64,000 nt of DNA from Gammaproteobacteria bacterium (GCA_045107005.1 JBGCFP010000101.1:1374-65373), one strand, 5' to 3'; shown: positions 9,856 to 53,367, numbered from the stretch's first letter. Numbers and translations are program-made. Notes: generated by a model from the letters alone, not told the origin.

Positions 9856-9908
9856 TGAACATTCCACCACGCGATTGAATTTGAATGGCCGCGTCAGTGC
9901 CGCTCCTG

Positions 9909-10379: not shown

Positions 10380-10398
10380 GATGCGTTCCTCTGTTAGA

Positions 10399-33915: not shown

Positions 33916-34947
33916 TCAGTTTGGGATCGCCCACAGCCCCTGTTGCCATGTTCCGTCTTGCGAATTCCCTGGACTGCTACAGTCGCCAGGCACGCCGCTC
34001 GGCCCGGGCACGCCAAAAAACACCGACCGCATTATTCCCAGATCAACGGCACTGACCACACCGTCACCGTTGAAGTCAGAATCTTCATCGTCACTGAAAA
34101 ACGCGATTCTTAGCATGCCAAGATCGGAAAAATTGATCAGGCAGTCATTGTCCAAATCGGTATCGCAGACGTTTCCGAAACCGTCATTGTTCGAATCTCT
34201 TTGATCGCTATTGGCAACTTCCAGGCAATTGTCCGCATTGTCCAGAACACCGTCGTTATCGGCATCGCCCACCGGGGCAACTGTTATCTCCCAGTTATCC
34301 GCACCGTGCACGATCGTTAGCAACCCTTCTGCCATCAGTTGATTTTGCATCAGGGCATTTGCCAGACCATAGCCGAATCGAATCTCAGACCCATCAATAC
34401 TGAAATCCGGAGACATACCCGGCTCGTCGATACCGGGATTGACCGCCAATGGCGCCTCGAAGTCCTGGGCGGTCAGACCGTTGAACTGCAGGTTTTCCCA
34501 CGACCCCGTCAAAAATTCGCCTATCGGGCCAAAGTAAAAAATTCCATCTTGTTCGAGTACGACGAAAAACCCTGATGACCCTGAGAGCGACGGATCCTCG
34601 AGAAGATCGATCGACATACTGACAGACCCGATTGCATCCATCTCTGCGGCGGAATAACTTGCCAGCGTATTCAGGCCAACGGTTGCAACAACATCGCCGA
34701 GCTCGACGTTGTGGATCGACTCACGATAAAAACCGGGATTGCCGTTGACGCCCAATAAATCGATGCTGCCGGTGGACGTGCCCGGTCCTTCACCCGGCAC
34801 TGATACATCGTCAAGAATGAAAACATTGTCGACCCATCCCACGCTAAAATCGCCATCGGTAAAGACGACATTCCCCGCGCTCGCGGATTGCCCCGCGCCC
34901 GCCACGCAACCGATTACACAAATAAACGAAAATATTGGTGTGCGCAT
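33916..34947 (-). CDS. Secreted protein with a C-terminal TSP3 + dockerin-like cassette
   Basis: 343 aa with a signal peptide. I do not recognise the N-terminal beta-rich domain. The cassette lies at 33994-34266. Confidence 0.85.
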   Translation of the reverse strand: MRTPIFSFICVIGCVAGAGQSASAGNVVFTDGDFSVGWVDNVFILDDVSVPGEGPGTSTGSIDLLGVNGNPGFYRESIHNVELGDVVATVGLNTLASYSAAEMDAIGSVSMSIDLLEDPSLSGSSGFFVVLEQDGIFYFGPIGEFLTGSWENLQFNGLTAQDFEAPLAVNPGIDEPGMSPDFSIDGSEIRFGYGLANALMQNQLMAEGLLTIVHGADNWEITVAPVGDADNDGVLDNADNCLEVANSDQRDSNNDGFGNVCDTDLDNDCLINFSDLGMLRIAFFSDDEDSDFNGDGVVSAVDLGIMRSVFFGVPGPSGVPGDCSSPGNSQDGTWQQGLWAIPN

Positions 34948-35218: not shown

Positions 35219-36622
35219 TCACGGTGACGGGCGATAACCGAAGAGCTTCCGACTTACGATCGCCTGTGCGACGCAATCGGGCACCATGGCCTGCCACTCG
35301 TCCTTCCCTTCGCCAATCATCTCCAAAACCTGCGGGGAGTGAATGTCCAGGTACTCCTGCCGGATGTTGGCGAGCTCGACGATGCTGCCGCGTTCTTTCA
35401 GATACGCGAAAAGATGCTGTAAACCGTCGTCCAGATGAATGTCGCTCAAGGTATCGAGCTGCTCAGAATCCGGCACTCTCTGCGGGTAGATGAAGAGTTT
35501 GAGCGAGTCTTTGAACAGCCGACCGAGGCTTTCAAGAATGCCGCCATCGAGATGTTCGTAGTGACGCGCATCAAACAGGCTGCGCAACATGCCAATGCCC
35601 ATCGCCATACCGATAGTGCGATCGGTGTAACGACTCAAATACGCCATCAGACGATAGTATTCGGGGAAGTCAGAGATCATGACCGTATGTCCCGTCGCCG
35701 CCAACACGTCTGCGCGGCTGACGAAATCCTGTAAACACACGTCACCATCGCCAGACAGCGAGTGCATCGAAATTTCCATGATGGGCAGAGGATCACGATT
35801 GGCGTCATCCACCACGTCATCGAATTTGGCAATCGCTGACGCCAGCATGTCCATGTTGACGTGGGTCACTGGACGAAAGCGGCCACGCTCGATGATCAGC
35901 GAACGCTTTCGCAGTGCTTGTGACGGCTGCAGTACTGTGCCGTCCGCCGCAAACATCGCGGCGCCCGACAATCCCAGTTCAACGAGCTTCAAGCTCATCA
36001 CTCGATTGTCGACAGCCGCATAACTGGGCCCCTGGAAATCAATCATGTCAATTTCGAGCCGTTGCGCCGACAGACCGTCGAGCAACGAGGCCACCAGTTT
36101 TAGCGGGTCCGCATCGCCTTTCAACGCACCGTGAATCAGGTTAACGCCGACCAGCCCAAGCGCTTCTTGCTGCAACACGTTGGTGTCGTCCAGCATCCGC
36201 ACGTGCACGATAATCGTGTTGTCTTCGCCATGCGATGCTGACTGAAAGCGGATTCCCATCCAGGCATGACAGTTGTTCGTGCCCAGATAGTTGCGTGCCG
36301 ATACGGTATCGGCGAAGGAGAAGAAGCGCGTCGAGTCGCCGCGTGTCTCGGTTAGCCGATCGCGGTTGAGCCGTTGCTCGCAAGCGAGCATCGCTTCAAG
36401 ACGTTCGCGGCAGACATAACGCTGACACGTCCCGTAGATCGCGTCGCTGACTTTCATGTCGTAGGCGGAAATACTCTTTGAAATCGTGCCTGCCGCCGCG
36501 CCAGCGCGAAAGAACCAACGCACCACCTCCTGCCCAGCGCCGATTTCGGCGAAGGTGCCGTACAGGCTGTCGTCCAAATTGACGTCCAGTGCTTTTTCGA
36601 GCGTCGACAAAGGTGGCGACAT
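35219..36622 (-). CDS. Cytoplasmic hypothetical protein of unknown function
   Basis: 467 aa with no signal peptide. The N-terminus is LYGTFAEIGAGQEVVRWFF. Codon usage is coherent. I do not recognise the family. Confidence 0.8.
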   Translation of the reverse strand: MSPPLSTLEKALDVNLDDSLYGTFAEIGAGQEVVRWFFRAGAAAGTISKSISAYDMKVSDAIYGTCQRYVCRERLEAMLACEQRLNRDRLTETRGDSTRFFSFADTVSARNYLGTNNCHAWMGIRFQSASHGEDNTIIVHVRMLDDTNVLQQEALGLVGVNLIHGALKGDADPLKLVASLLDGLSAQRLEIDMIDFQGPSYAAVDNRVMSLKLVELGLSGAAMFAADGTVLQPSQALRKRSLIIERGRFRPVTHVNMDMLASAIAKFDDVVDDANRDPLPIMEISMHSLSGDGDVCLQDFVSRADVLAATGHTVMISDFPEYYRLMAYLSRYTDRTIGMAMGIGMLRSLFDARHYEHLDGGILESLGRLFKDSLKLFIYPQRVPDSEQLDTLSDIHLDDGLQHLFAYLKERGSIVELANIRQEYLDIHSPQVLEMIGEGKDEWQAMVPDCVAQAIVSRKLFGYRPSP

Positions 36623-36900: not shown

Positions 36901-37107
36901 CTACGGATTCAGCCCACTTGGCCCGGGCGCGCCGAAGAAGCTGGCTCGCAGCAAACCAAGGTCCTGCGCATTCACGATGCCGTCGCCGTTCAGGTCGGCA
37001 TCCTCGTCGGCGGCGAAAAACACCGAGCGCATCAGGCCGAGATCGACCACGTTGATCACGCCATCGTTGTTTAGATCGGCGTTGCACAGGTTGCCAAAGC
37101 CGTCACC
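36901..37107 (-). pseudogene. 5'-truncated gene retaining only the TSP3/dockerin-like cassette
   Basis: GDGFGNLCNADLNNDGVINVVDLGLMRSVFFAADEDADLNGDGIVNAQDLGLLRASFFGAPGPSGLNP-stop. Homology stops at 37107, where the IS256 fragment begins. The rest of the 156-aa ORF is read-through into the IS. Confidence 0.7.
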
Positions 37108-37655
37108 ATGTGTGTGGACGGCCTGACGGGCTTCCCGGACGCCATCGAGACGGTGTACCCGAAAGCGAAAATCCAGCTGTGCATCGTGCACATGATGCGC
37201 AACAGCCTGAACTTCGTGTCTTGGAAGCAGCGCAAGGCCGTTGCCGCGGATCTCAAACGCATTTACAAATCCACGACCGTGGACGACGCCGAGCGCGAGC
37301 TCGACGCCTTCTGCGAACGCCGGGACGATCCGTTGCCGACCATCGGTCTGATGTGGCGGCGCCACTGGCACAACCTCATTGCGCTCTACGATTACCCGAT
37401 GGAAATCCGGAAAATCATTTACACGACTAACGCCATCGAATCGCTCAACAGCCTGATCCGAAAACCGGTTCGCAAACGCAAGCTGTTCCCGAACGAGCGC
37501 GCAGCCTGCCCTTGGGGTATAACGCCGCGCTCAAAGTGGTGTATCTTGCGTCGATGGACGCGGCGAAGAAATGGAAGCGGCCAGTGCGGGACTGGAAGGC
37601 GGCTTTAAATCAGTTCGCCATCCTTTACGATGGCGAGTACGACTTCAACTCATGA
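37108..37655 (+). mobile_element. IS256-family transposase gene fragment (C-terminal half, frameshifted)
   Basis: VDGLTGFPDAIETVYPKAKIQLCIVHMMRNSLNFVSWKQRKAVAADLKRIY...YTTNAIESLNSLIRK. After a frame change near 37505-37520 it continues [36 protein letters not shown]-stop at 37653-37655. The N-terminal half is missing. Confidence 0.8.
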
Positions 37656-37683
37656 ATCGGCGCTTACACAGTTACGTCGACAG

Positions 37684-39351
37684 TCTCGGGATCGCGGACA
37701 GACGTGGCGCCACGTGCGCAACCTGTCGATCACGCAATTTTATCGCATCGCCGCAGATGAAGCCGAACCGCTTTATAACGTGTGTGGCGGCACGCAGGAC
37801 AACAACTCGCTGTGCGCGCCGTCGCGCACCACCGTGGTCCACGGCATCACCAACTCCGACTGGGAAATGGTGCTGGGCGGCGACGGCTACAAGCCGCAGA
37901 TCGATCCGACCGATCCCAATACCATCTACGCTCAGTACCAGTACGGCGGCCTCGCTCGCTACGATCGCCGCACGCAGGAACGCATCTACATCACGCCGCA
38001 CCCAAAGAGCGGGGCGACCGCTTACAAGTGGAACTGGAATACGCCGCTTCTGATCAGCCCGCACAATCCGCGTCGCCTGTACCACGCGGCCGAACGCGTT
38101 TTTCGTTCCGACGATCGTGGCGACTCGTGGAGCGTCATCCGCCCGGATCTCACACGACAGCTTGATCGCAATCAGTTAGAGGTCATGGGCCGCATCTGGA
38201 GCGTGGATGCCGTCGCCAAAAACGACTCGACATCGATGTATGGCAGCATCATTGGCCTCAGCGAAAGCCCGCGTGTCGAAGATCTCCTGTACGTTGGAAC
38301 CGACGACGGTGTGATCAGCGTCAGCGAAGACGGTGACGACAACTGGCTGTACGTGGAAGGCGACCGGTGGGACAACCGGGAAAAAGGCTCGATGGGCAGC
38401 GGTTTCTTTGCCGCCCCCAACCCGGCTTATGGTGCGGTATTCAGCTACTACCTCGCCGATGACTCGCTTACGCAAAAAGAAGCGCGTCGCAAGAAGGAAC
38501 TGGAGATTGAGAAAGACGGCGGCGACACGCCCTATCCTTCCTGGGACACGCTGCGCGCGGAAGATCGCGAAGACAAGGCGCAGCTGGTACTGGTCGTACG
38601 TAACGAAGATGGCGAGGTCGTGCGCCGCATTCCCGCTGAGACCAAAAAAGGCCTGCATCGCTCAGCCTGGAACCTGCGCTTTGTTGCGACAGACCCGGTC
38701 AATCTGAACCCGCCGAAGGACCCACCCTACTGGGAGACGCCACCGATTGGCCCGCTCGCGTTGCCCGGTACCTATTCGGTCACGCTGGCAAGGCTCGGCG
38801 ACAAGGGCTTTGAAGGCCTGACCAAAGCGCAGGAGTTTGACGTGGTCAGCCTCAATGCCAGCCCCGAAATCACGCGCGACCGGGACGCGCTGCTGGCGTT
38901 CCAAAAGGAGACGGCCCAACTGCGGCGTGCGGTCATGGGCGCCTCCGGTCTTACGGGGGAGATGCAGCAGCGGATCGATCACATGAAAGTGGCGCTGCGC
39001 GACACGGCCGCGGCTGAGGATAAACACTTTGCACAACTTCGCGGACTTGAAGCGCGTCTCGACGATCTCAACCGCGCGCTTGCCGGCGACGCCACCGTGT
39101 CGTCACGCAACGAAGCCACGGCGTGGTCGATCGCCGGTCGCATCAACGCCGTTTATCTGGGACAAATCGAATCGCAGTCCGACGTCCCGCAGCTGTACAA
39201 AGAGTCGCTGGCAATTGCTCGCACTGAGTTTGAAACCGCTCAGAATGCCGCGCGCATTTTGCAGCGGAATCTGACGGCGTTTGAGGTGAAGATGGAAGCA
39301 CTGGGTGCGCCGTGGACGCCGGGTCGCACGCCGGTCTGGTCGCCGGAGTAG
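37684..39351 (+). pseudogene. 5'-truncated BNR/Asp-box (sortilin-Vps10-like) repeat protein
   Basis: Homology starts abruptly at the Asp-box SRDRGQTW, right after the IS256 fragment. Further Asp-boxes ([16 protein letters not shown]) follow, and GGTQDNNS is present. There is no signal peptide or N-terminal half. Confidence 0.7.
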
Positions 39352-39457: not shown

Positions 39458-42400
39458 TTACTGCGCCGTCACCCGCACATCGTCGATGCCCGCTTCGATC
39501 AGGCTGGGCACACCCGCGTCCGCCGCCTCGACCAGGATGTAGACGGTCTGTCCGGCGAAACTGCTCAGATCGACAACGGCCTCTTGCCACGCTCCGCCAT
39601 CAATATTGGAGGCGCCGAGTTCTTCGAACACCGTTTGCGTGTTGCTGCCCACAACTTTGACACGCAGGAAGTCGTCGGTCGTGCCGTTGTCGTAATGCGC
39701 AAAGTAGTACGAGAACGACAGCTCACTGCTTGCGCCGGCCGGCAACACAATCTCCGGTGAGCGCATCGACGTGACACCGTTGTCGATGTCGTCGACGCCG
39801 GCTGACGAACCGGCGTTGCCGCCCGTGACCAGATAGTTGGTACCGCTAACGGCGTTGTCCAGCTGGTACGCGACACCGCTGATGGTCGTGGCCTGAGCGT
39901 TCGCTTGTTCCCACAAGCCAGTCGTCGCACTGTCTGTGCCATTGGGGTTGCGCATCCACAGCGATGCACCCTCAAAGTCGTCAATGAACAACTGGTCGCC
40001 AAACGGCGTTGGGTCGCTGTTGTCACCGATGCCATCGCCATCCGAGTCAAGCGTTTCCGTCGGATCGTTCGGGAACGCATCCAGATGATCGGCCACGCCG
40101 TCACCGTCCGAGTCCTGAGCGAAATACTCCGTACCGATTACCGTCAGTGTGCCGTTACTCGGACGCTGCCACGCGACCGCTACATTGTCACCGCCACCGG
40201 CTTCCTTGTGCAGGACCTCGAGGTAGTAAGCCTCACCGGCAACCAGCTCGATGCTGGCGGACTGCTGCTGTGGATACTTCGTCCACAAACGCGATGTGGT
40301 CCAACCCGGCACGCTCGCAATCTCTACCTTGTTCGCAGCGCTGCTGTCCGTGCTGAGATTGAGCTGGACGTTATCGTCGCCCGACACCCAGAACGTGTAG
40401 CTACCCGATTCGGGTGCGAAAAAGATGCCGCGAAGACGCGAACCGTAGTTATCCAGCACGTTAATCGGGCCTTCAAACGAAGCCAATTCTTCGAGCAACG
40501 CCGGGTTGTCCGGGAAATTGGCGGAGTTGGTCAGGTCCGCGACCGCGACACCACCAATGCCGGTGAACACGTCGCGCCAGATACCGGCACTGCGGGTCGG
40601 ATCGTTCGGGAACAAGTCGATGTTGTCGGCCACGCCGTCGCCATCGCTGTCCTGGTTCGGACGATCCGGATCATTCGGGTACGGATCCGCGTTGTCGCCA
40701 ATGCCGTCGCCGTCCGAGTCCGCGGTTTCCGTTGGATCGTTCGGGAACGCATCCGCGTTGTCACCAACTCCGTCGCTGTCAGAGTCGACGGTCTCGGTTG
40801 GATCATTCGGGAACGCGTCGCCGTTGTCACCCACGCCGTCACCATCGGTGTCCGTGGTCTCGGCAGGATCGCTCGGGAACGCATCAGCGTTGTCGCCCAC
40901 ACCGTCACCGTCGGTATCCGCCGACTCGTTTGGATCGTTGGGGAAGGCATCGCCGTTATCACCCACGCCGTCGCCATCCGTGTCCGTCGTTTCCGTTGGA
41001 TCATTCGGGAACGCATCGGCATTGTTGCCCACACCGTCGCCGTCACTATCCACAGATTCGGTCGGGTCGTTAGGGAACGCATCGCCGTTGTCGCCCACGC
41101 CGTCACCGTCGGTGTCTGTGGTCTCCGTCGGGTCATTCGGGAACACATCGGCGTTGTCGCCCACGCCGTCGCCATCGCTATCGGCAGTTTCCGTCGGATC
41201 GTTGGGGAACGCATCGTCTTCGTCCGGGACACCGTCGCCGTCCGAGTCCACAAAGGCAACGCCCTCTTCTCTTCCGATCTGCTCGAGGTAAGCAACGAGA
41301 TTGGTTAAATCAGCACCGCTCACGGTATTGCCATCGTGAGCCGTCACGGCGACCGCCAACGTTGGCGCGCTGCCGTCATGCAGGTACGGCGCCGTCTTCC
41401 ACACATCGCGCAACGTCGGCACGTCAATGCCGGTCAGCGGACCGCCAAGACGCTCGCCGCTGGACGCATTGATAGTGCCGATGTCCGTCAACGTGGTGGC
41501 ATCCTGACTGTTGGTGAAGCGCGTACCACCGTGACAGGTGCCACAGCCGCTGGCTTCGAACACCAGCTTGCCAGCCGCGCCCGCAGTCGTCAGCGAACCG
41601 TCCTGATTGCGGTACGGGCTTTCATCAAACTCGTTCAGCGAGGCCAGGTACGCGGCCAGCGCGTCGAGGTCTGAACTGAAGCCAGCCTTGGTATCGCCCA
41701 GAGGCTCGTTGCGCGTGCCGGCAAAAAAGTCTGCATCGCTCATCAGGCCGGAGCCGGCCGACAGCGTCCGAATCTGACCTTCGAAATCCTGCAGCTCATC
41801 GAAGTTGGCGGACCAATGCAGGAAGCCGTGGCCCGTTGCCGCGCGGCCATTGAGCTCAATCGTGTTACGCAAACCTTCGCCGAAGCTGGTCATGTCCCAC
41901 ACACGGCCGTCTTCACCGCCGTCGTTGTGACAGGACGCGCAACTCATGTAGTTGTCGTGTGCCAGTCGGTCGTCCTCGGCGTCGTAGAACAACTGCTTAC
42001 CAAGGAATACCGGCGCACTCAACGCCTCATTGCTGACGACATCCGTCGTCCCGAGCACGTTGGTCGCGGGCAGATCGGTTTCGATCATCTCGGCCAGATC
42101 AAAGCGCGACACACTGCGATCCATAAAGTTGTGCACGTAAGCCTTGCTGCCGTCGCTGGACAATGCGACACCTTGGGGCGCACGCCCGGTCGGCAGGCGC
42201 ATCACTTCAAAGCCGTTGAGGATGTCGAACACGCCCAGTTCGCGACTGGTCTCCAGTGCCACCAGCAGATATCGGTTGCCGCCGGTGATCGCGGCGCCCG
42301 TACCAAGGCTCGCGTTGTCAAAGTCGATACGCAGTGTGCCTTCGGTTTCCGTTGCCAGTTCAATTCTCGACACGTTACTGCGTACGGTCTGATCAAAGGT

Positions 42401-45400
42401 CATGCCGAAGTTACCGCGCAGCAGACCCGAGTCGATGTTGTCCTTCTTCGATGGCACGAACGCAAACGTGTTGTCGAAGGCGATGACCGGCGCGTTGAGA
42501 TAGTTCGGCAAGCCCGGTCCCTGACTCTCCGATGTGGGCCGGTTGTCGTGCGTCAGAGCAATTGTGTTGCTCAGACTCATGGTAGCCGGGTCGACAGAGA
42601 ACACTTGTGCGCCGCCGCCCGCGAAGTTGATGTCGACCGTCGCCTCACCCGGCACCGGTGGCGTGATGAAGTTACTGACGAGCAGTTTCGCATCGTCGTA
42701 GGTCATCGCGATGTGACGTGGCATACCGGACAACTGGATCTCGCTGATCAACGCCTGCGTTGCCGCATCGCGTTTTTGCACGGTCGCCAGTGCTTCGAGC
42801 ACCACAAAGTATTCGCTGCCGGAGTTGTTGAACACCAAACCATGTGGTTGTGAGCCGTAAGGCAATGCCACCGTCGACTCCACCGCCAACGTTGCAGTGT
42901 TGATGATCGTGATGTTTGCGTCAGCCTTGTTCGCGACAAAGATTCGGGTTGCACTCGGCGCCTTGGCCAGTGACCACGGCTTCTCGCCAACGTCAATCTG
43001 TTGAATCAACGAACCGTCGGCCGACGAAACGGACACCGAGTCGTTGTCCGGGTTTACGTTCCAGATGCGATCACTGCCGCTGCTGTTTTCCACCAGCAAC
43101 GTGGTCGAGTTGCGTGGTGCGGTCGGCAGCGCCACGATGTTCGACCCACCCGTTGGCGTCGAATCGCTGTTGTCGCCATAACCGTCGCCGTCTGAATCGA
43201 GGGTTTCGGTCGGGTCGTTCGGAAACGCGTCGCTATTGTCCCCGACACCATCGCCGTCCGTATCGACGGTTTCAGTCGGGTCGTTCGGGAAGGCATCCGC
43301 ATTGTCACCGACGCCATCGCCATCGGAGTCGGCGGATTCCGTTGGGTCATTCGGGAACACGTCGGCGTTGTCGCCCACGCCGTCGCCATCCGTATCGGTC
43401 GTCTCCGTCGGATCGTTCGGGAACGCATCCAGATTGTCCGGCACGCCGTCGCCGTCACTGTCCACGGCGTCGGCCGCCGTCAGCTTGATATCATCGATGC
43501 CGGCTTCGATCAGACTGCCGCCCGCTGCATCGGCTGCGGACACGAGCAAGTAGATCGACTGGCCTGCAAAGCTGTCCAGATTGACGTTGGCCTGCTGCCA
43601 CGCCGCACCGGCGTCGGTGGTGTTGCCGAGCACTTCGAGTACTGTAACCGTGCTGCTGCCAACCACCTGCACGCGCAGGAAGTCGTCGGTCGTCGCGTTG
43701 GTGAGATGCGCAAGATAGTATTGGAATGACAAGTCAATCGGCGTTGACGACGGCAGGTTGATCGACGGCGACCGGATTGAGGTTGTGCCGTTATCAATAT
43801 CGTTGGTGCCAAGCCCAGCGCCCGCGCTGCCTTCGGTCACCAGGTACTGCGCGCCGCTGGCGGCGTCGGCGGTTTGCATCACGAGGCCGTTGCCGGTTTC
43901 TTCGGCATTCGCCGCTTCCCACAAGCCGGTTGTGGCCGTGTCCGTGCCGTTCGGATTGCGTGTCCAGCCGCTGTTGGTTTCGAAATCGTCCGCGAACAAT
44001 ACGTTACCAAATGGCGTCGGATCGGCGTTGTCGCCTATACCGTCACCGTCTGAGTCCATGGTTTCGGTTGGGTCGTTCGGGAAGGCGTCGAGACTGTCGG
44101 GCACGCCGTCACCGTCAGAGTCGGTGTCGAAGAACTGCCCGCCAATCACCGTAATCGTGTTGTCGCTTGGACGCTGCCACGCCACGGCTAGATTGTCGCC
44201 ACCGGCCCCTTCTTTATGCAGCGCTTCCAGGTAATACGCTTCGCCCGCAATGAGTTGGATCGTCGCGGAACTTTGCTCGGGGAACTTCGTCCACTCACGT
44301 GAACCGGACCAACCAGGCACGCTCGCGATTTCTGTTTTGTTCGCTGGGTTGAAGTTAGAGCTGAGATTGAGCTGGACATTGTCATCGCCTGCTACCCAGA
44401 AGGTGTAGCTGCCCGTCTCGGGCGCAAACAGGATGCCGCGCATGCGCGTGCCGTAGTTGTCCAGAACGTCGGTTGGTCCTTCGAACGACGTCATCTGTTC
44501 AACCGTCGCCGGGTTGTCCGGGTAGTTGGCGGAGTTGGTCAGGTCGGTGACCGCGTTGCCGGCAATGCCGGTAAACACTTCGCGCCAGACGCCGGCACTG
44601 CGATTGGGATCGTTCGGGAACAGGTCAAAGCGGTCGGGTACGCCATCACCGTCCGAGTCCAGAATGGGTCGGGTCGGATCGTTGGGGTATGGATCGGCAT
44701 TGTCGCCCAAACCATCGCCATCGGAGTCCATGGTCTCGGTCGGGTCGTTCGGGAACGCATCGGCATTGTCACCCACGCCGTCGCCATCCGTGTCTGCGGA
44801 TTCCGCAGGGTCATTCGGGAACGCATCGCCATTGTCGCCGACCCCATCACCGTCGCTGTCCGTCGTTTCGTTCGGGTCGTTCGGGAACACGTCGGCGTTG
44901 TCGCCGACGCCGTCGCTGTCCGAATCGCGCCACTCCGTCGGATCGTTCGGGAACGCATCTTCGGAATCCGCGTAGCCATCACCATCGCTGTCGGTGAAGC
45001 TGCGCTGCACCTGAATGGTCTGACCAATGGACGGTGTGTCGTTATCGTTCACAGCAAACAGCCAGTAGTTACCGGCGATCAGTACGTTCGGGTTCGCGTT
45101 CAAAGTTAGCGTAAACGTGCCGTCACCGTTGTTGACCGACGACACGGGCAGATACCGCTGGTCCGTGTTCACATGGTGAGTGGTCGCCGAAAGACGAACC
45201 ATCGAAAAGCGCACCGTATCCGCGCCGGCAGCAACGGTGAACGTACCGCCGGTGCCAATAATTGGTGGCACATTTGACAGGGCCGGTCTCGACGCTGGCG
45301 AACCATCGTCATTGTAAAGATACGGCGGCGTGAAAATCTGGCCGTCAAGGTGGTTGGCTGCACAACCGGTGCCACACGCGCCACCGCCCGCAGAAAGTAC

Positions 45401-46897
45401 GCGGCCGTCTTTCATCAGCAGCGACGTCGAGTGGTAGTTACGCGGAATGGAAATAGAATCCACGACGCGCCAAGTGTTGGATTGCGGACTGTAAATTTCC
45501 GCGGGGAAAATCGAACCGCCGTCGAAAAAGTTTTGACCCGATACGTTGCCGCCAATCACCAGTACCTCGCCGTTCGGCAACGTGACCGAGTTACTCAATG
45601 CACGCGGATAGTTCATCGGCGCACCTTGCGTAATCACCGGCGCCGGGCCGTTTAGGTCCGCCAGAAAGACGTTGGTTACCAAGGTTCTTTCGGTTTCGCG
45701 CGGGTCCATCCCGCCAATCAGCATAACTTTGCCCACGTCGTAGGTGACCACGTTGCCCCATTTTCTCGCGCGCGAGCCCGTCGGCTGTCCAAAGTCCTGA
45801 TTGTTGGCGCCGCTCACCGGATCAAAACTGTGCAATGTGGGCGTGGGCCCGCCGTGGAAAACACGACCGTTTGGCTGCACCGCAAGCTGGGGGAACCACT
45901 CCAAACCACCAATGCTGTTGTGCTCGTCGAGCAGCGTTTGCATGGTCGCGTTCGGCGTGCGGATCCAGCGGTTCTCCAGTGGATCGTATTTCTCCGAGCG
46001 ATTGCCGGCCGACTTGCCGAACGTCGCGAAGATCTGGTTGTTGGGCAGCGTTACACTGGTGGCGTACCAACGCAGGTCAAACATATTGGGTAGCGCCGAC
46101 CAATTCATGTTGGTCGGGTTAAAGGTGCTGGTGCGGCGATCGTCCGGGTTACCGCCCGACGCGACGATGCGACCGTCTTCCAGTGTCGCGACGCCGGCAC
46201 AAAACATGTCGTGGAAATTATTGTCGATGCTGGAGAACGTCTGGGTCACAGGATCAAAAATCGACGAATGGGTAAATTCACGATTGGCCGGGAAAGAGTC
46301 CGTCTCGGTGGAGGACCAGGTCAGCACGCGACCGTCGGGCAGGTTCGCAGCGGAGATCGCGATGTGCGGCCACTGAATAACCGGACCCCACTGGCCAAAT
46401 TCGGCGATGTCCGCCACTTCCAATTCACCGTTGGCCGGAATCGGCAAGAAGCCGCCACTGGATGCGCGGTAAAAGACGTCCAGCACTTCGCCGCCGCCTT
46501 TCTCAAAAAACTCGACGCGCAAATCGTAGACGCCGGGATTCAGAAATACCTGGCCGCTGACGGTGACTGGCGCGTGCAAGCCATCGTTGTCCACTACCAT
46601 CGCACCGTCAATATACAAGCGCGAGCCGTCGTCCGATGTCGTTTGAAACGCGTAGGTGTCGGCCGCGGAGACGGTGATTTGATTGGTGAACACCAAACCA
46701 AACGTCTCAACCTGAGTGGTCACGCCAAGCGTAATAACGTCGCTGGTCCCACTGGCTATCGGAGACAGCGTCGTGAAATCAGGCAGCTGATTGAAGTCAC
46801 CATCGTAGACGGAGTAATTGAATTGTGAAAACGCAAACGGGGCGTAAGCGAAGACACCGAAGAGAACCAGAGCTTTGAGCTCGCTCAATTTATTCAT
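39458..46897 (-). CDS. Giant secreted multidomain protein: PA14, galactose-oxidase-like copper radical oxidase, TSP3 arrays, PA14, MAM/LamG-like, beta-propeller, di-haem CCP/MauG-like, PA14, MAM/LamG-like
   Basis: ATG at 46897 follows AAGGG and gives signal peptide MNKLSELKALVLFGVFAYAPFAFSQ (2479 aa). Oxidase motifs are HDMFCAG, RNYHSTSLLMKDGRVLSAGGG and NHLDGQIFTPPYLY. Haem motifs are CASCH (41927-41941) and CGTCH (41531-41545). Three PA14-like blocks and many DxDxDGxGDxxDxFPNDP repeats are present. Confidence 0.9.
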   Translation of the reverse strand: MNKLSELKALVLFGVFAYAPFAFSQFNYSVYDGDFNQLPDFTTLSPIASGTSDVITLGVTTQVETFGLVFTNQITVSAADTYAFQTTSDDGSRLYIDGAMVVDNDGLHAPVTVSGQVFLNPGVYDLRVEFFEKGGGEVLDVFYRASSGGFLPIPANGELEVADIAEFGQWGPVIQWPHIAISAANLPDGRVLTWSSTETDSFPANREFTHSSIFDPVTQTFSSIDNNFHDMFCAGVATLEDGRIVASGGNPDDRRTSTFNPTNMNWSALPNMFDLRWYATSVTLPNNQIFATFGKSAGNRSEKYDPLENRWIRTPNATMQTLLDEHNSIGGLEWFPQLAVQPNGRVFHGGPTPTLHSFDPVSGANNQDFGQPTGSRARKWGNVVTYDVGKVMLIGGMDPRETERTLVTNVFLADLNGPAPVITQGAPMNYPRALSNSVTLPNGEVLVIGGNVSGQNFFDGGSIFPAEIYSPQSNTWRVVDSISIPRNYHSTSLLMKDGRVLSAGGGACGTGCAANHLDGQIFTPPYLYNDDGSPASRPALSNVPPIIGTGGTFTVAAGADTVRFSMVRLSATTHHVNTDQRYLPVSSVNNGDGTFTLTLNANPNVLIAGNYWLFAVNDNDTPSIGQTIQVQRSFTDSDGDGYADSEDAFPNDPTEWRDSDSDGVGDNADVFPNDPNETTDSDGDGVGDNGDAFPNDPAESADTDGDGVGDNADAFPNDPTETMDSDGDGLGDNADPYPNDPTRPILDSDGDGVPDRFDLFPNDPNRSAGVWREVFTGIAGNAVTDLTNSANYPDNPATVEQMTSFEGPTDVLDNYGTRMRGILFAPETGSYTFWVAGDDNVQLNLSSNFNPANKTEIASVPGWSGSREWTKFPEQSSATIQLIAGEAYYLEALHKEGAGGDNLAVAWQRPSDNTITVIGGQFFDTDSDGDGVPDSLDAFPNDPTETMDSDGDGIGDNADPTPFGNVLFADDFETNSGWTRNPNGTDTATTGLWEAANAEETGNGLVMQTADAASGAQYLVTEGSAGAGLGTNDIDNGTTSIRSPSINLPSSTPIDLSFQYYLAHLTNATTDDFLRVQVVGSSTVTVLEVLGNTTDAGAAWQQANVNLDSFAGQSIYLLVSAADAAGGSLIEAGIDDIKLTAADAVDSDGDGVPDNLDAFPNDPTETTDTDGDGVGDNADVFPNDPTESADSDGDGVGDNADAFPNDPTETVDTDGDGVGDNSDAFPNDPTETLDSDGDGYGDNSDSTPTGGSNIVALPTAPRNSTTLLVENSSGSDRIWNVNPDNDSVSVSSADGSLIQQIDVGEKPWSLAKAPSATRIFVANKADANITIINTATLAVESTVALPYGSQPHGLVFNNSGSEYFVVLEALATVQKRDAATQALISEIQLSGMPRHIAMTYDDAKLLVSNFITPPVPGEATVDINFAGGGAQVFSVDPATMSLSNTIALTHDNRPTSESQGPGLPNYLNAPVIAFDNTFAFVPSKKDNIDSGLLRGNFGMTFDQTVRSNVSRIELATETEGTLRIDFDNASLGTGAAITGGNRYLLVALETSRELGVFDILNGFEVMRLPTGRAPQGVALSSDGSKAYVHNFMDRSVSRFDLAEMIETDLPATNVLGTTDVVSNEALSAPVFLGKQLFYDAEDDRLAHDNYMSCASCHNDGGEDGRVWDMTSFGEGLRNTIELNGRAATGHGFLHWSANFDELQDFEGQIRTLSAGSGLMSDADFFAGTRNEPLGDTKAGFSSDLDALAAYLASLNEFDESPYRNQDGSLTTAGAAGKLVFEASGCGTCHGGTRFTNSQDATTLTDIGTINASSGERLGGPLTGIDVPTLRDVWKTAPYLHDGSAPTLAVAVTAHDGNTVSGADLTNLVAYLEQIGREEGVAFVDSDGDGVPDEDDAFPNDPTETADSDGDGVGDNADVFPNDPTETTDTDGDGVGDNGDAFPNDPTESVDSDGDGVGNNADAFPNDPTETTDTDGDGVGDNGDAFPNDPNESADTDGDGVGDNADAFPSDPAETTDTDGDGVGDNGDAFPNDPTETVDSDSDGVGDNADAFPNDPTETADSDGDGIGDNADPYPNDPDRPNQDSDGDGVADNIDLFPNDPTRSAGIWRDVFTGIGGVAVADLTNSANFPDNPALLEELASFEGPINVLDNYGSRLRGIFFAPESGSYTFWVSGDDNVQLNLSTDSSAANKVEIASVPGWTTSRLWTKYPQQQSASIELVAGEAYYLEVLHKEAGGGDNVAVAWQRPSNGTLTVIGTEYFAQDSDGDGVADHLDAFPNDPTETLDSDGDGIGDNSDPTPFGDQLFIDDFEGASLWMRNPNGTDSATTGLWEQANAQATTISGVAYQLDNAVSGTNYLVTGGNAGSSAGVDDIDNGVTSMRSPEIVLPAGASSELSFSYYFAHYDNGTTDDFLRVKVVGSNTQTVFEELGASNIDGGAWQEAVVDLSSFAGQTVYILVEAADAGVPSLIEAGIDDVRVTAQ
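40596..41248 (-). repeat. Tandem 66-nt (22-codon) thrombospondin type-3-like repeat array, ~10 units
   Basis: The coding repeat is DSDGDGVGDNADAFPNDPTETT, iterated. The antisense frames give artefactual S/P-rich ORFs. Confidence 0.85.
43158..43466 (-). repeat. Tandem 66-nt TSP3-like repeat array, ~5 units
   Basis: Same unit as the array at 40596-41248. Confidence 0.85.
44603..44992 (-). repeat. Tandem 66-nt TSP3-like repeat array, ~6 units
   Basis: Same unit as the array at 40596-41248. Confidence 0.85.
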
Positions 46898-47181
46898 TGT
46901 TGACCCTTGGCAGTCGGACAAATGAGTGCTGTTATGAATCTGACGCTTCTACAGCAACGGCTTGTTGGTGGCCCACGATCTTGGTCGCGGTGCTTTATAT
47001 AAGTATAGACGCAGCAATATTCGTGCCGGGGCCGGAGTTGTTCGCTGATTGTCTAAATGAAACAAAGGCTTAAGCGATATGGCATAACCTCTTCATTTGA
47101 CTAATTTCGAAGTGGGCAACCGGCGAATCCGCAACTGGAAGAATTTTCGACGGCTTGGTGCAGCGCGCGAGGTATCAATGT

Positions 47182-47928
47182 GGTGTTGACAACTAAACTC
47201 CGTCGGAGCCAAAACCGCTTTCGCCCAGATTTAAGCTGCTGCTCTGCTCCATTCCGCGTACGCACTTGTCCTGAGATCACGGTAGTGATTGGCAGCTACC
47301 AAGTGCCTCCCAAGATTGAACAAATTGTAAACAGCAGCATGAGCAATCAGAAATCGCTGGCCCTGTTTGACCGATTTGAATCTTCGCATTACTTCTTCTC
47401 GGGCTCTCGTCGGTTGATGCGACAGTTCAGCTCGGTTGTTGGCGTATTGCGATCTGTCATGGATCGCATCGGGTATGAGCTCTCTGTGCGCGACATCGTA
47501 GCTCCGCAATTTGTCGGTCACAATCTTCCTTGGCTCGCCACCGTGGCTTCGCGGAAGGCGCTTGAAGAAACTCTTTGCGGCACTGCCGTCTCTGCGAGAC
47601 TGAAGAAACACATCAACCACTTCGCCATCCTGGTCCACCGCACGCCAGAGGTAGTGCTGCTTGCCATTCATACGCACGAAGGCTTCGTCGATGAAAAACG
47701 TATCGCCGTACCCGCGATGGTTTTGCTTCAGTCGCCGAGCAAACTTCCGACCAAACTTGTTGCACCAGAGGAGTATTGATTCGCCACTTACTGTAATTCC
47801 ACGCTCAGCCAGCATGTCTTCAATGTCGCGATAGCTGAGATTGAAGCGAAAATACAGCCAAACAGCGTAACTGATGATGCTTGGCGGGAATCTGTGGCGC
47901 TTGTACGTGTGGCTAGCCCCGTCATAAT
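47182..47928 (-). mobile_element. IS6-family element, transposase N-terminally disrupted
   Basis: The ORF 47231..47815 and its in-frame upstream extension read ...YKRHRFPPSIISYAVWLYFRFNLSYRDIEDMLAERGITVS...DEAFVRMNGKQHYLWRAVDQDGEVVD...YANNRAELSHQPTRAREE..., which has an IS6/IS26-like DDE layout. No in-frame start exists, since the nearest ATG is in another frame. The IS3 element abuts at 47929. Confidence 0.75.
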
Positions 47929-48266: not shown

Positions 48267-49093
48267 TGTACTTGCGAGAGCATTACGACATCAGCGAACG
48301 GCGCGCCTGCCAGGCCATGCAGATTAACCGCTCGAGCTATCGTTACGTTGGTCAGCGCACGTTGATCGATGCGGGCTATAAGGAAGTGCTTCGATTGTCT
48401 GATGCTTATCGGTAGTTTGGCTATCGAAAGATCTACGACTTGATGCGCGAGAGCTGGTCAATCAGCCGAGAAAGGGTGCGCTTAATCCGTCGTCGAGAGG
48501 GCTTGCAGGTCGTGAAAAAGCGTCGTAAACGTCGGGTACTGAGTATGACAACGCAGTGGGTGAACCAGGCTCGATATCCCAATCATGTCTGGAGTTACGA
48601 CTTTGTTTTTGATCGCACGGATGATGCACGGCAACTGAAGTGCATGACGGTCGTTGATGAGTTTACGAGACAGGGGTTTGAAATAACGGTGGGTCGCAGT
48701 TTGACCGCGGCGGACGTTACCCGGATTCTCGGCAAACTCTTTGAGCAGCACGGGCGCCCAGTTTGCCTGCGTAGCGACAATGGCCCGGAAATGGTATCGA
48801 CCAAGGTCCAGGACTGGCTCAAGGAAAAGCATGTTGATACGCACTACATTGATCCGGGTAGCCCTTGGCAAAACGCGTACTGTGAGAGCTTCAACTCTAT
48901 CTTCCGGAGCACGTGCTTGGATCGATGGCTGTTCGGCTCAATGACCGAAGCGCGAGTGATCATCAAAAGCTGGCTTAATGAATACAACACGGTAAGGCCG
49001 CATGGATCGCTGGGCGGGCTGAACCCGAAGCAATTTCTACAGCGATGGGTTAGCAAAAATACGATTCAAAAACCCGAAACTCTAACAGCGTGA
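48233..49093 (+). pseudogene. IS3-family transposase OrfB (rve/DDE) with an in-frame TAG
   Basis: 48233..48415 and 48440..49093 share one frame (-1 relative to orfA), interrupted by TAG at 48413-48415 (AYR-stop-FGYRKIYDLM). The DDE region is WSYDFVFDRT...LRSDNGPEM...PGSPWQNAYCESFN. Confidence 0.75.
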
Positions 49094-49518: not shown

Positions 49519-50448
49519 TCAATCACACGCGTTCGTCAACGCACTTGGGCCGGGCGACTGAAAGAAGCGGCTGCGGAGTTCGCCCAAATCCGCGACATTG
49601 ACAATTCGATCGTTATTGAAGTCTGCATTGAGGTCATTCGAAAAAAACACCTTCCGTAGCAGGCCCAGGTCTGCAGCGTTCGTCACACAGTCGTTATTCA
49701 GATCGGTGTCACAGGCGTTTCCGAAACCATCACTATCGGCATCCCGTTGGCTCGTATTTGACGTGACAACGCAATTGTCCTCGCTGTCGAGGAAACCGTC
49801 GCCATCAGCATCGTTGTCCGGCGAAAATATATCCGCTTCATTGAAGAAAAAATACTGGCTGCCGGTAAAGTTGCCTGAATATTCTGTAGCCGTGGTCTGC
49901 CAGTGCGTATTGTTGAAAACCCAAGAACCGATATCGTTATTTGCTTCCCAATAGAGCAGTGATCCAAGGCCTGACAGCTCGGGCACCGAAAAATCCAGTG
50001 CAATAAGGGCCAGGATGTTATTCGAACCGGGAATAAAACCTGAAAACGCCTCGACCAGAATGCCGGAGACCAGCAACTGAGGTTCATCAATGCCTAACTC
50101 AGGAATCGTACCGCGTAGAAAAAACGCGCCGCCGATTGCTTCACCATCGTTATTCACGATGGCATTCAGCGTCGCCTGGGTCGTCACTTCGATCGACACA
50201 ACGACGCCACCAATAGACAGCCCTGTCCCATTGCAGTCACCAGTCTGAGACCACAGAAACGTAGACGCGTTGTATGAGCCGTCCGACGAGCAGCTCGACG
50301 AGCCACCTATATTACCGGTTGAAGTGCCGCGCTGAACACTTGTGAGCGGCATGAAGCCAGAGGCCCCATCTGCCATTGCCATGTTGGCGACAAGAGTAAA
50401 TACCGACACTCCAATTAGTGCGGTTAATGCGAACACGGATCTCAACAT
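49519..50448 (-). CDS. Secreted protein with a C-terminal TSP3 + dockerin-like cassette
   Basis: ATG at 50448 follows GAAGGA and gives signal peptide MLRSVFALTALIGVSVFTLVANMAMA. The cassette is at 49522-49818. I do not recognise the N-terminal domain. Confidence 0.85.
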   Translation of the reverse strand: MLRSVFALTALIGVSVFTLVANMAMADGASGFMPLTSVQRGTSTGNIGGSSSCSSDGSYNASTFLWSQTGDCNGTGLSIGGVVVSIEVTTQATLNAIVNNDGEAIGGAFFLRGTIPELGIDEPQLLVSGILVEAFSGFIPGSNNILALIALDFSVPELSGLGSLLYWEANNDIGSWVFNNTHWQTTATEYSGNFTGSQYFFFNEADIFSPDNDADGDGFLDSEDNCVVTSNTSQRDADSDGFGNACDTDLNNDCVTNAADLGLLRKVFFSNDLNADFNNDRIVNVADLGELRSRFFQSPGPSALTNACD

Positions 50449-50670
50449 TGAATGTTCCTTCAAGATTGCTTGGCAAGGTCTGAGCAGAGAACAGGACGCA
50501 TAAACACCCTACCCGAAGTAGTGCAAACAAGGGATAGATCCGAACAACGAGCGGAAGTTGCGATTCGTCGGACGGGCGTTTGGTAGGCGAGGCCAGGTGA
50601 GTGTAGTGGTCAACACGCGAAACGTTGCAAAGCTGGAGTCAGTTTAAGGCATCAAAGCAATCAGGGTGAA

Positions 50671-51081: not shown

Positions 51082-52086
51082 CTACGGCGCTGCAGAACAA
51101 CCGTTGGGTTGGCCGCTCGGTCCTGGCGGTTGCAAGAAGCGCGTGCGCAGGATACCAAGATCAGCCACATTGACCGATCCGTCACTGTTAAAGTCGGCAG
51201 CCGGGTCGGCGCTGAAAAACACGCTGCGGAAGAGCCCCAGGTCCACCACGTTGGTCACGCAGTCATTGTTCAGGTCGGTATCGCACAAGTTGCCGATGCC
51301 GTCGGCGTCGCCGTCAATCTGGTCAGCATTGGCGACCAGCGTGCAGTTGTCACTAACGTCCGCCACACCGTCATTGTCGGTATCCACGTCGCCGGTCAGG
51401 CCGTAGCGCAGCATGCCGTCAGCGGATAACGTCCACGCGCGCTCGAAGTCCCGCTCGGAGAACTCGCCACCGGAGAACTGATCAAACTCGCGCGCGTAAA
51501 ACGCCAGGGTTTCGCCAACGGTTGCACCGGTCGAAAAGAGTACGACCGAGCCCAGCGATTCGTTAAATGTAGCCGGATTGGTGTAAAACCCGTTGCTGGC
51601 GGGCAGCTCGATCGTGCTCGACAGATTTTCCGCCGGATCCGTGGTGCCAGCCGCCATGTCGTGCGCGGCGGTGAACATCGAAACGGCTGAGTGAATCGCC
51701 TGCAGACTCGTCAGCGGGTCGGTGGGAAAATCAATCGTCGGGCTATTGCTCGTCGTGAACACCGTCAAGAAGCCGCCAAACGAAAAGTTCTCCACGCCGA
51801 CAACCGAGTAGCGCAGATCGCCGGCAGCACTGTCGCCGAACGTGTTGAGGTACAGATCGTCCGGTGAAAATTCGAAGTCGAAATTGCTGAACTGGAAAGC
51901 ATTGAGCGTAATACCGAGATCTCTTGTGTAGGTGATGCCGCGCGACGAATCGTGCACGGTCAGGAACATCTCCGCTGCCGGATCGTCAATGTCCCCCTCG
52001 GTAACGATGGCCGCGGAGGCGCCAGCCGACAGGGCGAGGGTGGTGAGCAGGGTACCGGTCTGCAGCAGGGCTTTGGTTTTTTTCAT
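51082..52086 (-). CDS. Secreted protein with a C-terminal TSP3 + dockerin-like cassette
   Basis: 334 aa with signal peptide MKKTKALLQTGTLLTTLALSAGASAA. The cassette is at 51085-51390. I do not recognise the N-terminal domain. Confidence 0.85.
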   Translation of the reverse strand: MKKTKALLQTGTLLTTLALSAGASAAIVTEGDIDDPAAEMFLTVHDSSRGITYTRDLGITLNAFQFSNFDFEFSPDDLYLNTFGDSAAGDLRYSVVGVENFSFGGFLTVFTTSNSPTIDFPTDPLTSLQAIHSAVSMFTAAHDMAAGTTDPAENLSSTIELPASNGFYTNPATFNESLGSVVLFSTGATVGETLAFYAREFDQFSGGEFSERDFERAWTLSADGMLRYGLTGDVDTDNDGVADVSDNCTLVANADQIDGDADGIGNLCDTDLNNDCVTNVVDLGLFRSVFFSADPAADFNSDGSVNVADLGILRTRFLQPPGPSGQPNGCSAAP

Positions 52087-52825: not shown

Positions 52826-53078
52826 ACGTGGTGCCGGACACGTGGTGCCGGTCATAACTTCATAACACTTCATCCACTGCCAGTGATTCTGATTTTGAGG
52901 CTTTGGATGCCGTTTCAGGACCGTGTCCTAAGTTATATTGTTATGACCGGCACCCGATTTGTTGCATGCCGTTCCAGGACCGTGTCCTAAGTTATATTGT
53001 TATGACCGGCACCCGATTTGTTGTTATGACCGGCACCCGATTTGGGCACCCGATTTGTTATGACCGACACCCGATTTG
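52826..53078. repeat. MITE-like element, family A, copy 2 (same orientation as copy 1)
   Basis: The left end has gtggtgccggaca (52829-52840) and gtggtgccggtcataac (52843-52858). The right end has gttatgaccggcacccgattt at 52940, 53000, 53023 and 53057, plus a partial at 53044. It includes a ~60-bp unit duplicated in tandem (52909-52968 and 52969-53019). A solo left-end motif lies at 52593-52610. Confidence 0.65.
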
Positions 53079-53085
53079 TGGCTAT

Positions 53086-53367
53086 TTGGGCGACGGACTG
53101 GACCTGAGTTCGCACACCGCGATGGTTGACGTCGTCGCACAAGCCGGGCTGGACGCCAACAAGGCCATAGAAATTCTGGAAGGCACCGCGTTTGCCGAAA
53201 GCGTACGTGGCGATGAGCAGCAGGCGCAGCAATACGGCATCACAGGCGTTCCCTTTTTTCTGATTGGGCGTTATGGCGTATCGGGCGCGCAAGAGGCAAC
53301 GACGCTGGCGGATGCCATTCGGCAGGTTGGCGCTGACGGACCGCCGCCAGCCGAACCGCCCGCATAG
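53086..53367 (+). pseudogene. 3' remnant of a DsbA/FrnE-family thiol oxidoreductase gene
   Basis: ...AQAGLDANKAIEILEGTAFAESVRGDEQQAQQYGITGVPFFLIGRYGVSGAQEATTLADAIRQV matches the C-terminal third of DsbA-like (FrnE/HCCA isomerase type) proteins. The CxxC-bearing N-terminus is absent, and homology begins exactly at the end of repeat copy 2. Confidence 0.6.

Follow-up and report, generated by a model that had tools for sequence, protein, structure and literature searches.

A large bacterial protein family that joins a copper radical oxidase to a beta-propeller and a di-haem cytochrome c domain

Copper radical oxidases lose their radical, and it takes an oxidant or a peroxidase to keep them active; for galactose oxidase, horseradish peroxidase (HRP) has been added empirically for decades. 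To our knowledge, natural activating partners have been found in two cases only, a fungal appressorial peroxidase and DtpA of Streptomyces. A 64,000-nucleotide (nt) stretch from a metagenome-assembled genome (MAG) of a Gammaproteobacteria bacterium (GCA_045107005.1, JBGCFP010000101.1:1374-65373; the whole stretch is called the window below) raises the question of whether some bacterial oxidases carry such a partner on their own polypeptide. It contains a gene for a protein of 2479 amino acids (aa), which the original prediction read as an H2O2-producing oxidase-like domain fused with a di-haem peroxidase-like domain, with no described example. Per-domain profile searches against Pfam and NCBIfam reproduced the predicted domains in the predicted order, from N- to C-terminus: PA14; Glyoxal_oxid_N/Kelch with GO-like_E_set (formerly DUF1929); a TSP3 array; PA14; MAM/choice-of-anchor J; a second TSP3 array; a YVTN propeller; CCP_MauG with RoxA-like_Cyt-c; a third TSP3 array; PA14; and MAM/choice-of-anchor J.

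The fusion of oxidase, propeller and di-haem domain is near-obligate in the three sets of relatives that we compared: the 120 best homologues (close set); the 80 best of at least 594 stretches returned from GTDB species representatives by a genome scan seeded solely with the di-haem motifs (locus set); and 136 new top cluster representatives from an exhaustive HMMER search that had the propeller/di-haem module as its query and returned 1359 representatives of 50%-identity clusters (E <= 1e-30). All 120 close homologues keep the order (PA14)-oxidase-spacer-propeller-di-haem, with a spacer of 40-1000 aa. At 70 of the 80 best loci the three parts lie in one open reading frame (ORF); of the remaining ten, six run into a contig end and another two are frame-broken fusions. 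The oxidase is present in 104 of the 136 new representatives, most of the others being N-terminal fragments, and true stand-alone forms are rare. This genetic linkage strongly supports the functional link between oxidase and peroxidase that had been proposed from the single protein.

Fusions occur in at least six phyla, with loci in Cellvibrionales, Steroidobacteraceae, many Burkholderiales, Methylophilaceae, Woeseiaceae, Acidobacteriota, Verrucomicrobiota, Polyangiaceae and Trueperaceae. Among the isolates that have it are Steroidobacter agaridevorans (L025), Variovorax sp. LT1P1 (L007, a compact member of ~1450 aa), Paracidovorax wautersii and Lentisalinibacter sediminis, and Marinobacter and Thalassotalea species are among the best homologues. 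The claim that no example had been described held for the literature, in that full-text searches found no paper on the fusion, which also goes unmentioned in the sequence-similarity-network study of the CCP_MauG superfamily; it did not hold in the sense of a singular protein, as the database search uncovered a large unnamed family. Already known are the individual kinds of parts, and oxidase-peroxidase partnerships between separate proteins; new, as far as the literature searched shows, are the covalent fusion, the class of peroxidase (a c-type di-haem domain that resembles hydrazine-synthase gamma and MbnH and comes with a propeller), and the size and spread of the family. Paralogous fusion genes are sometimes paired in tandem or close by (L064, 3215-7750 and ~8144-11914; L079; L084, 1-2662 and 6001-11088), and three copies lie on a single Methylophilaceae chromosome, OZ252007.1 (L006, L028, L040).

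Assignment of the first catalytic module rests on its cofactor residues and fold. When aligned with Fusarium galactose oxidase (GAOX; reference sequence verified by its residue numbering), Cys233, Tyr278, Tyr488, His489 and His574 fall opposite C228, Y272, Y495, H496 and H581, so that all five copper/cofactor residues expected from the original prediction are present. They are invariant in 121 of 121 close relatives and in 67 of 67 distant ones, the oxidases of which are only 25-40% identical. In profile comparisons with PDB entries, aa ~170-640 match solved copper radical oxidases end to end, with 291 bits for 9G43 ('galactose oxidase'), 246 bits for Colletotrichum AAO (6RYV), 239 bits for Fusarium galactose oxidase (1GOF) and 116 bits for GlxA (4UNM). 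The kelch and E-set fold is recognized by Pfam (Glyoxal_oxid_N, Kelch_6, GO-like_E_set) as well as by full-length alignment to 1GOF, 9G43 and 6RYV.

The window oxidase shares with the fungal AA5_2 enzymes (1GOF; Colletotrichum AlcOx 5C86 and AAO 6RYV; 9G43) a seven-bladed kelch propeller with a C-terminal E-set, scores of 232-291 bits across the catalytic region, the five cofactor/copper residues, conserved Phe194 and Phe464, and a carbohydrate-binding domain directly N-terminal of the oxidase. Unlike them, it has Ser296 at the position of the stacking Trp290 and instead an R-W-Y motif that sets a Trp beside the radical Tyr; its N-terminal module is PA14 rather than CBM32, and it is fused to the propeller/di-haem unit and TSP3 arrays. 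The galactose-binding residues are not conserved either (Arg330 lies opposite a gap or Gly, Gln406 opposite Glu), and the substrate therefore need not be galactose. We rejected galactose oxidase sensu stricto (AA5_2 GalOx), given the departures at Trp290, Arg330 and Gln406 and the PA14 domain in place of CBM32, and likewise a GlxA equivalog (NCBIfam NF052501; 150 bits against a cut-off of 800).

The Trp-Tyr pair corresponds to Trp288-Tyr289 of GlxA (PMC11611005) and is invariant in 121 of 121 close relatives. Across the distant set a stacking Trp occupies GAOX position 271 or 290, never both and never neither, with 57 sequences of the WY type and 10 of the GAOX type (L002, L028, L034, L037, L050, L051, L052, L067, L075 and L076). 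Such compensation between two mutually exclusive positions speaks for upkeep of the radical cofactor in the family. By residues and fold, then, the module is assigned to the copper radical oxidases (CAZy AA5 sensu lato); the earlier galactose/glyoxal oxidase label agrees with the residues and can be refined, as the domain is closest overall to fungal AA5_2 yet has the GlxA-type pair.

The second module contains the two predicted CxxCH haem motifs, CASCH and CGTCH. These, together with Trp1695, His1854 and the motifs DGRxWD, GEGxRNT and HW..NFDE..DFE..IR, are invariant in 83-121 sequences. Profile scores against PDB entries were 83 bits for Shewanella cytochrome c peroxidase (CCP; 3O5C), 77 for hydrazine-synthase gamma (5C2V_C), 51 for MbnH (6E1C) and about 34-37 for MauG; PF03150 scored 30.4 bits against a gathering cut-off of 25.6, and all curated NCBIfam di-haem models fell far under their cut-offs. 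MauG itself (TIGR03791) was rejected at 34.9 bits against 443.85, with a His at the CCP Met-ligand position, where we take the axial ligand Tyr294 of MauG to lie. Neither MbnH (TIGR04039; 52.3 bits against 362.85, first haem region only) nor hydrazine synthase beta-gamma (NF052342; 66.8 bits against 1250, with Ser at the equivalent of Cys165) fits. Canonical CCP was rejected as well, on the alignment: the Met ligand is replaced by His1854, no His aligns with the GHHW loop that provides the distal His, and the NPxEM segment (npkem in 3O5C) lies opposite a gap. The original CCP/MauG-like call thus stands at the level of the superfamily, the haem motifs and the inter-haem Trp, and falls for canonical CCP and MauG, whose ligand and catalytic residues differ. 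Judged by sequence, the unit is a member of the CCP/MauG superfamily in none of its named families, and appears nearest to hydrazine-synthase gamma and MbnH.

With bacterial CCPs (Shewanella CcpA 3O5C, Pseudomonas CCP 1EB7) it has in common two CxxCH motifs, the inter-haem Trp and a C-terminal APYxHDGS motif, but it has His for Met, lacks the distal-His loop and the NPxEM/Gln segment, and sits behind a propeller. The same combination of a YVTN-type seven-bladed propeller and a CCP-like di-haem domain with a bis-His haem 2 (a proposed one in the window protein) is found in Kuenenia hydrazine synthase beta/gamma (5C2V) and in beta-gamma fusions, and (V/I)WD...GEG motifs are common to the window domain and gamma. 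Differences from that enzyme are a Ser for the third haem-link Cys of gamma, the lack of an alpha subunit and of any anammox context, and a copper oxidase as partner. The resemblance to MauG and MbnH lies in the shared superfamily, in the N-terminal haem region (52 bits with the MbnH model, 51 bits with 6E1C) and in the idea of long-range oxidation of a redox residue in a partner protein, whereas the MauG Tyr ligand is His here, the scores are far under the cut-offs, and the presumed partner is in cis. AlphaFold2 modeled propeller and di-haem domain with a predicted local distance difference test score (pLDDT) of 84 and a predicted template modeling score (pTM) of 0.89, and a structural search with the propeller model returned 1l0q_A at rank 1 and hydrazine-synthase beta (5c2v_B) at rank 2 (template modeling score 0.77). 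Propeller and di-haem domain are accordingly predicted by the model to form one rigid beta/gamma-like unit.

What two such modules might do together is suggested by known pairs. Copper radical oxidases drift to an inactive Cu(II)-Tyr state from which peroxidases reactivate them (PMC11611005). Colletotrichum and Magnaporthe co-secrete a dedicated peroxidase for the one-electron oxidation of AlcOx from its resting Cu(II) form to the active radical form (PMC9770985), and in Streptomyces GlxA relies on Sco and on a peroxidase, DtpA, whose H2O2 comes from GlxA (PMC4736821). By analogy, the fusion is probably a built-in version of these fungal and Streptomyces partnerships. Like the fungal Perox-AlcOx pair and the HRP/galactose oxidase combination, it couples an oxidase genetically to a dedicated haem peroxidase-like partner; the fungal pair, however, consists of two secreted proteins with head-to-head genes and a class II b-haem peroxidase, whereas the fusion has its c-type di-haem module and propeller on the same chain as the oxidase. 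Like the GlxA/Sco/DtpA system, the family has a copper radical oxidase of bacterial origin in which a Trp-Tyr pair stacks on the cofactor, and a haem peroxidase-like partner, here in cis; a Sco gene adjoins the fusion gene at 33 of the 80 loci and is absent from the window. It differs in having a c-type di-haem domain rather than a DyP peroxidase and in the covalent fusion of partners that are separate in Streptomyces; no cellulose-synthase-like CslA context was seen for the family.

The reading we favor, to which we give an even chance, is that H2O2 made by the oxidase is consumed by its own di-haem module, with electrons drawn through the bis-His haem from the Cu/Tyr-Cys center, so that the radical state is kept. 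The protein would be secreted, stabilized by calcium and targeted to glycans, with its two catalytic units on a flexible tether of variable length. The first unit would oxidize a primary alcohol to an aldehyde and reduce O2 to H2O2, its substrate most likely being a sugar hydroxymethyl group of a polysaccharide bound by the PA14 and MAM modules. In the second, the N-terminal haem, apparently open since no distal His aligns, would reduce H2O2 to water, while the bis-His haem 2 would relay electrons to this reaction, most likely from the oxidase's own Cu/Tyr-Cys center. The di-haem unit would in this way both restore the active Cu(II)-tyrosyl radical and keep peroxide from building up.

Patterns of conservation are consistent with this proposal. 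Identity to the window protein ranges over 49-90% for the di-haem domain and 25-95% for the oxidase, taken over all three sets because the locus set is ranked by di-haem similarity. Accessory carbohydrate-binding modules interchange among relatives (PA14, NPCBM, malectin, discoidin, ricin). A constant di-haem domain beside a variable oxidase and variable binding modules is in keeping with a partner whose task does not change and is directed at H2O2 or the cofactor rather than at a variable substrate.

Gene neighborhoods add a copper theme. A SCO1/SenC copper-chaperone gene is adjacent on the same strand, up- or downstream, at 33 of the 80 loci (among L002-L079; e.g., L007, 5983-6648, and L025, 11220-11816). 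At eight further loci, never together with Sco, a YtkA-like domain and a separate MauG-like di-haem protein lie beside the fusion gene, so that 41 of the 80 have a copper-trafficking-type neighbor. YtkA/CtaK is a copper-site assembly factor that acts with Sco in Bacillus (PMC13344008). The YtkA and MauG/MbnH-like partner (~410 aa) may be fused or encoded by two genes, and the pair, which is reminiscent of MbnH/MbnP-type copper systems, was seen at L001 (12440-13937), L022, L038, L047, L056, L074, L078, L080, L082 (4100-5729) and L083 (15576-17256); it adjoins the genes for P0016 and the Marinobacter protein P0029.

Several observations weigh against the favored reading. An AlphaFold2 model of a relative with a short linker (P0115, aa 145-1300) reached a pTM of only 0.55, versus 0.89 for propeller and di-haem domain, and gave no confident interface between oxidase and haems in this short-linker core. 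The linker varies from ~40 to 1000 aa across the family, which disfavors a fixed electron-transfer geometry; together with the low pTM, this means that any contact must be transient, or that coupling is by proximity only. The di-haem domain has neither the Gln/Glu segment of CCP nor the Tyr ligand that enables bis-Fe(IV) in MauG, so that membership of the superfamily is the ground on which peroxidase chemistry is assumed. Hydrazine-synthase gamma, by some measures the closest solved relative, reduces NO and not H2O2. The potential of a bis-His haem 2 may also be too low for the +0.4 V tyrosyl couple unless a ferryl haem provides the pull. Finally, the 64-kb window contains no Sco, YtkA or second di-haem gene, and the missing Sco and YtkA count on the same side; the surroundings of the gene are uninformative, with insertion sequence (IS) fragments, TSP3 proteins and ORFs without a Pfam match.

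An extracellular site is plausible from the sequence; it is put no higher because the sole export signal is a Sec peptide and the periplasm is where c-type haem becomes attached. Some relatives have PEP-CTERM-like tails, such as the sorting signal at the C-terminus of P0115 (…LPEP…hydrophobic…RRRR, aa ~1465-1497) and a PF07589 match in P0017, and these tails suggest exosortase-dependent attachment to a surface or matrix; the window protein has no such tail. Its 2479 aa contain only seven Cys: the cofactor Cys, the pair in GACGTGC (Cys508/Cys512) and the four haem Cys.

Possible, though short of probable, is that the oxidase supplies peroxide with which the di-haem/propeller unit oxidizes a third substrate, such as a phenolic or humic compound, Mn(II)/Fe(II), or a polymer to be cross-linked. 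A partnership of glyoxal oxidase and peroxidase is the classical AA5 role (PMC11611005), and the fusion would mirror white-rot fungi, in which glyoxal oxidase feeds lignin peroxidase. Tightly conserved loops of the propeller might provide a substrate site beside haem 1, the lack of predicted docking between oxidase and haems agrees with this reading, and family members are known from degraders in soil and sediment (Steroidobacter, Burkholderiales, Acidobacteriota). For a niche-specific substrate, however, one would not expect the strongest conservation in the di-haem/propeller unit and lineage-dependent variation in the oxidase and binding modules; no known substrate-binding motif was found, and the copper-chaperone neighbors bear on the oxidase only.

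We likewise regard as tentative a bolder form of the favored coupling, in which the protein is a self-sufficient four-electron alcohol:O2 oxidoreductase. The Cu/Tyr-Cys center of the tethered oxidase would directly reduce a di-haem center of the hydrazine-synthase-gamma-like kind, two alcohols would be oxidized per O2 with water as the sole by-product, and the radical would be regenerated by the enzyme itself. If true, this would be a previously unknown electron relay from a copper radical to haem, and a bacterial answer to the old question of how copper radical oxidases become activated in nature.

It is unlikely that the di-haem unit is simply a self-protective, CCP-like scavenger of the oxidase's H2O2, fed by an external periplasmic or surface donor and taking no part in oxidase activation. 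Membership of the CCP/MauG superfamily, two haems and the inter-haem Trp agree with such a role, and the periplasm, where c-type haem matures, has suitable donors (cytochrome c, cupredoxin). Yet the His/Met electron-entry haem and catalytic residues of CCP are not conserved, no cytochrome or cupredoxin gene recurs beside the fusion gene, and the carbohydrate-binding modules, the TSP3 arrays and the PEP-CTERM tails of relatives point to a place outside the periplasm, where soluble donors are lacking.

Two further readings seem quite improbable. In one, the haems replace O2 as electron acceptor of Cu(I)/Tyr and pass electrons to an external acceptor without forming H2O2, much as in the cytochrome domain of cellobiose dehydrogenase or in quinohaemoprotein alcohol dehydrogenases. 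We know of no copper radical oxidase with an acceptor other than O2, which counts against this mode. A bis-His haem 2 is typical of electron relays, and c-type cytochromes that reduce bacterial lytic polysaccharide monooxygenases offer a parallel (PMC8981238); haem 1, however, appears open in the manner of catalytic haems, and no docking is predicted.

The other, equally improbable in our estimate, is that the di-haem unit is a maturase akin to MauG or MbnH that works a single time on each molecule, with H2O2 or O2 as its oxidant, to install or complete the Tyr-Cys link or another protein-derived cofactor in the oxidase or the propeller. Galactose oxidase forms its Tyr-Cys link by autocatalysis with Cu and O2, which argues against the need for a maturase. 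The replacement of the MauG Tyr ligand by His and scores far under the MauG and MbnH cut-offs are further objections. On the positive side, MauG and MbnH do modify partner proteins and give weak matches here, maturation of GlxA depends on DtpA (PMC4736821), and a separate MauG-like gene recurs with YtkA near some of the fusions.

That the long ORF is an assembly chimera of the MAG or a decaying pseudogene can practically be dismissed: although the source is a metagenome-assembled contig with three repeat arrays inside the gene and IS elements directly upstream, the frame is open over 7.4 kb, the repeats are at most 81% identical, and the domain order recurs in hundreds of independent assemblies, isolate genomes included. 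The single ORF with signal peptide was confirmed, with no frameshift or stop. On the minus strand it runs uninterrupted over 39458..46921 (2487 aa counted from TTG), and from the ATG at 46897 it encodes the 2479 aa, beginning with the Sec-type signal peptide MNKLSELKALVLFGVFAYAPFAFS followed by Q. All quoted motifs and positions proved exact (HDMFCAG, RNYHSTSLLMKDGRVLSAGGG, NHLDGQIFTPPYLY, GKQLFYD, the Cys233 codon and both CxxCH). TSP3 units of 66 nt are mutually 60-81% identical, and the two copies of the PA14-MAM cassette share 70% of their nt and 68% of their aa; with repeats this diverged, collapse or chimeric assembly is unlikely. A 2391-aa protein in an independent MAG (P0001) is 88% identical with unchanged domain order, and P0002 is 69% identical over 100% of the query. 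P0002 has three MAM copies, which together with the cassette duplication implies that accessory modules expand by internal duplication. The duplicated TSP3-PA14-MAM/choice-of-anchor-J cassette spans 43460-44590 versus 39461-40600 on the minus strand. The public record (MFK8016368.1) is titled 'MAG: PA14 domain-containing protein [Gammaproteobacteria bacterium]'. Features of the gene are collected in Table 1.

Table 1. Positions of the fusion gene and its features, counted from the first nucleotide of the window.
Feature	Position	Strand	Remarks
Whole fusion gene	39458..46897	-	2479 codons + stop; oxidase-propeller-di-haem protein, NCBI MFK8016368.1
Signal peptide (aa 1-24; MNKLSELKALVLFGVFAYAPFAFS)	46826..46897	-	Read from translation; putative cleavage site
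PA14 domain 1 (aa ~30-165)	46403..46810	-	Directly N-terminal of oxidase; fungal galactose oxidase has CBM32 there
Copper radical oxidase, kelch propeller + GO-like E-set (aa ~170-640)	44978..46390	-	291 bits 9g43_A, 239 bits 1gof
Cys233, Cys of Tyr-Cys cofactor (GAOX Cys228)	46199..46201	-	Invariant 121/121 and 67/67
Trp277-Tyr278, radical/equatorial Tyr (GAOX Tyr272) after GlxA-type stacking Trp	46064..46069	-	
Tyr488-His489, axial Tyr + Cu-ligand His (GAOX Tyr495/His496)	45431..45436	-	
His574, Cu ligand (GAOX His581)	45176..45178	-	
TSP3 calcium-binding array 1 (aa ~636-770)	44588..44992	-	
PA14 domain 2 + MAM/choice-of-anchor-J domain 1 (aa ~800-1145), cassette copy 1	43463..44500	-	
TSP3 array 2 (aa ~1146-1235)	43193..43462	-	
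Seven-bladed YVTN beta-propeller (aa ~1255-1625)	42023..43135	-	Abuts di-haem domain directly
Di-haem cytochrome c domain, CCP/MauG superfamily (aa ~1626-1880)	41258..42022	-	
Haem motif 1, C1653-A-S-C-H1657, N-terminal, presumed catalytic haem	41927..41941	-	Invariant
Trp1695, aligned with inter-haem Trp of CCP and MauG	41813..41815	-	Invariant
Haem motif 2, C1785-G-T-C-H1789, C-terminal haem	41531..41545	-	
His1854, aligned with CCP Met ligand (3o5c), proposed haem 2 sixth ligand (bis-His)	41336..41338	-	Putative role
TSP3 array 3 (aa ~1884-2105), about ten 22-aa units	40583..41248	-	
PA14 domain 3 + MAM/choice-of-anchor-J domain 2 (aa ~2130-2479), cassette copy 2	39461..40510	-	68% identical to copy 1

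The two modules are fused in more than 1000 clusters (Proteobacteria, Acidobacteriota, Verrucomicrobiota, Myxococcota and Deinococcota), and by 'Rosetta stone' reasoning the partnership of oxidase and peroxidase may be general and ancient in bacteria. The family offers a single-polypeptide system in which that partnership can be measured. A self-activating, peroxide-neutral alcohol oxidase with swappable binding modules, if the favored reading is right, could introduce aldehydes into polysaccharides without added HRP and catalase. The fusions also extend the hydrazine-synthase beta/gamma-type module far beyond anammox bacteria, and flag a large family that has so far been annotated merely as 'PA14/NPCBM/malectin/discoidin/RICIN domain-containing protein'.

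The wider surroundings of the gene in the window are summarized here for completeness. Upstream are two transposase fragments, a DDE_Tnp_IS240 ORF (194 aa, 47231-47815, minus strand) and an rve/rve_3 integrase-core ORF (217 aa, 48440-49093, plus strand). The gene for the closest homologue, P0001 (locus L081), lies in a different context; given that difference, the window locus, with its upstream transposase fragments, may have been rearranged. The 3' end is flanked by ORFs at 37630-39351 (plus strand, 573 aa, convergent with the fusion gene) and 35219-36622 (minus strand, 467 aa), neither with a Pfam match at E <= 0.001. Nearby are a sub-threshold polysaccharide-lyase-like match (28473-29390, minus strand, 305 aa), a DUF885 protein (31487-33307, plus strand, 606 aa) and a DsbA-like thioredoxin fragment (52903-53367, plus strand, 154 aa); no link between these three and the fusion was established. 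The window is rich in ORFs for putative secreted proteins (30449-31168, 33916-34947, 36901-37371, 49519-50463, 51082-52086, 53486-56068 and 56821-59427). Six of these seven match TSP3, the first of them also dockerin, and 36901-37371 matches dockerin and EF-hand only. Among the TSP3 proteins of the window, one has Sortilin/BNR repeats (860 aa) and another a sub-threshold match to the FTP propeptide (868 aa).

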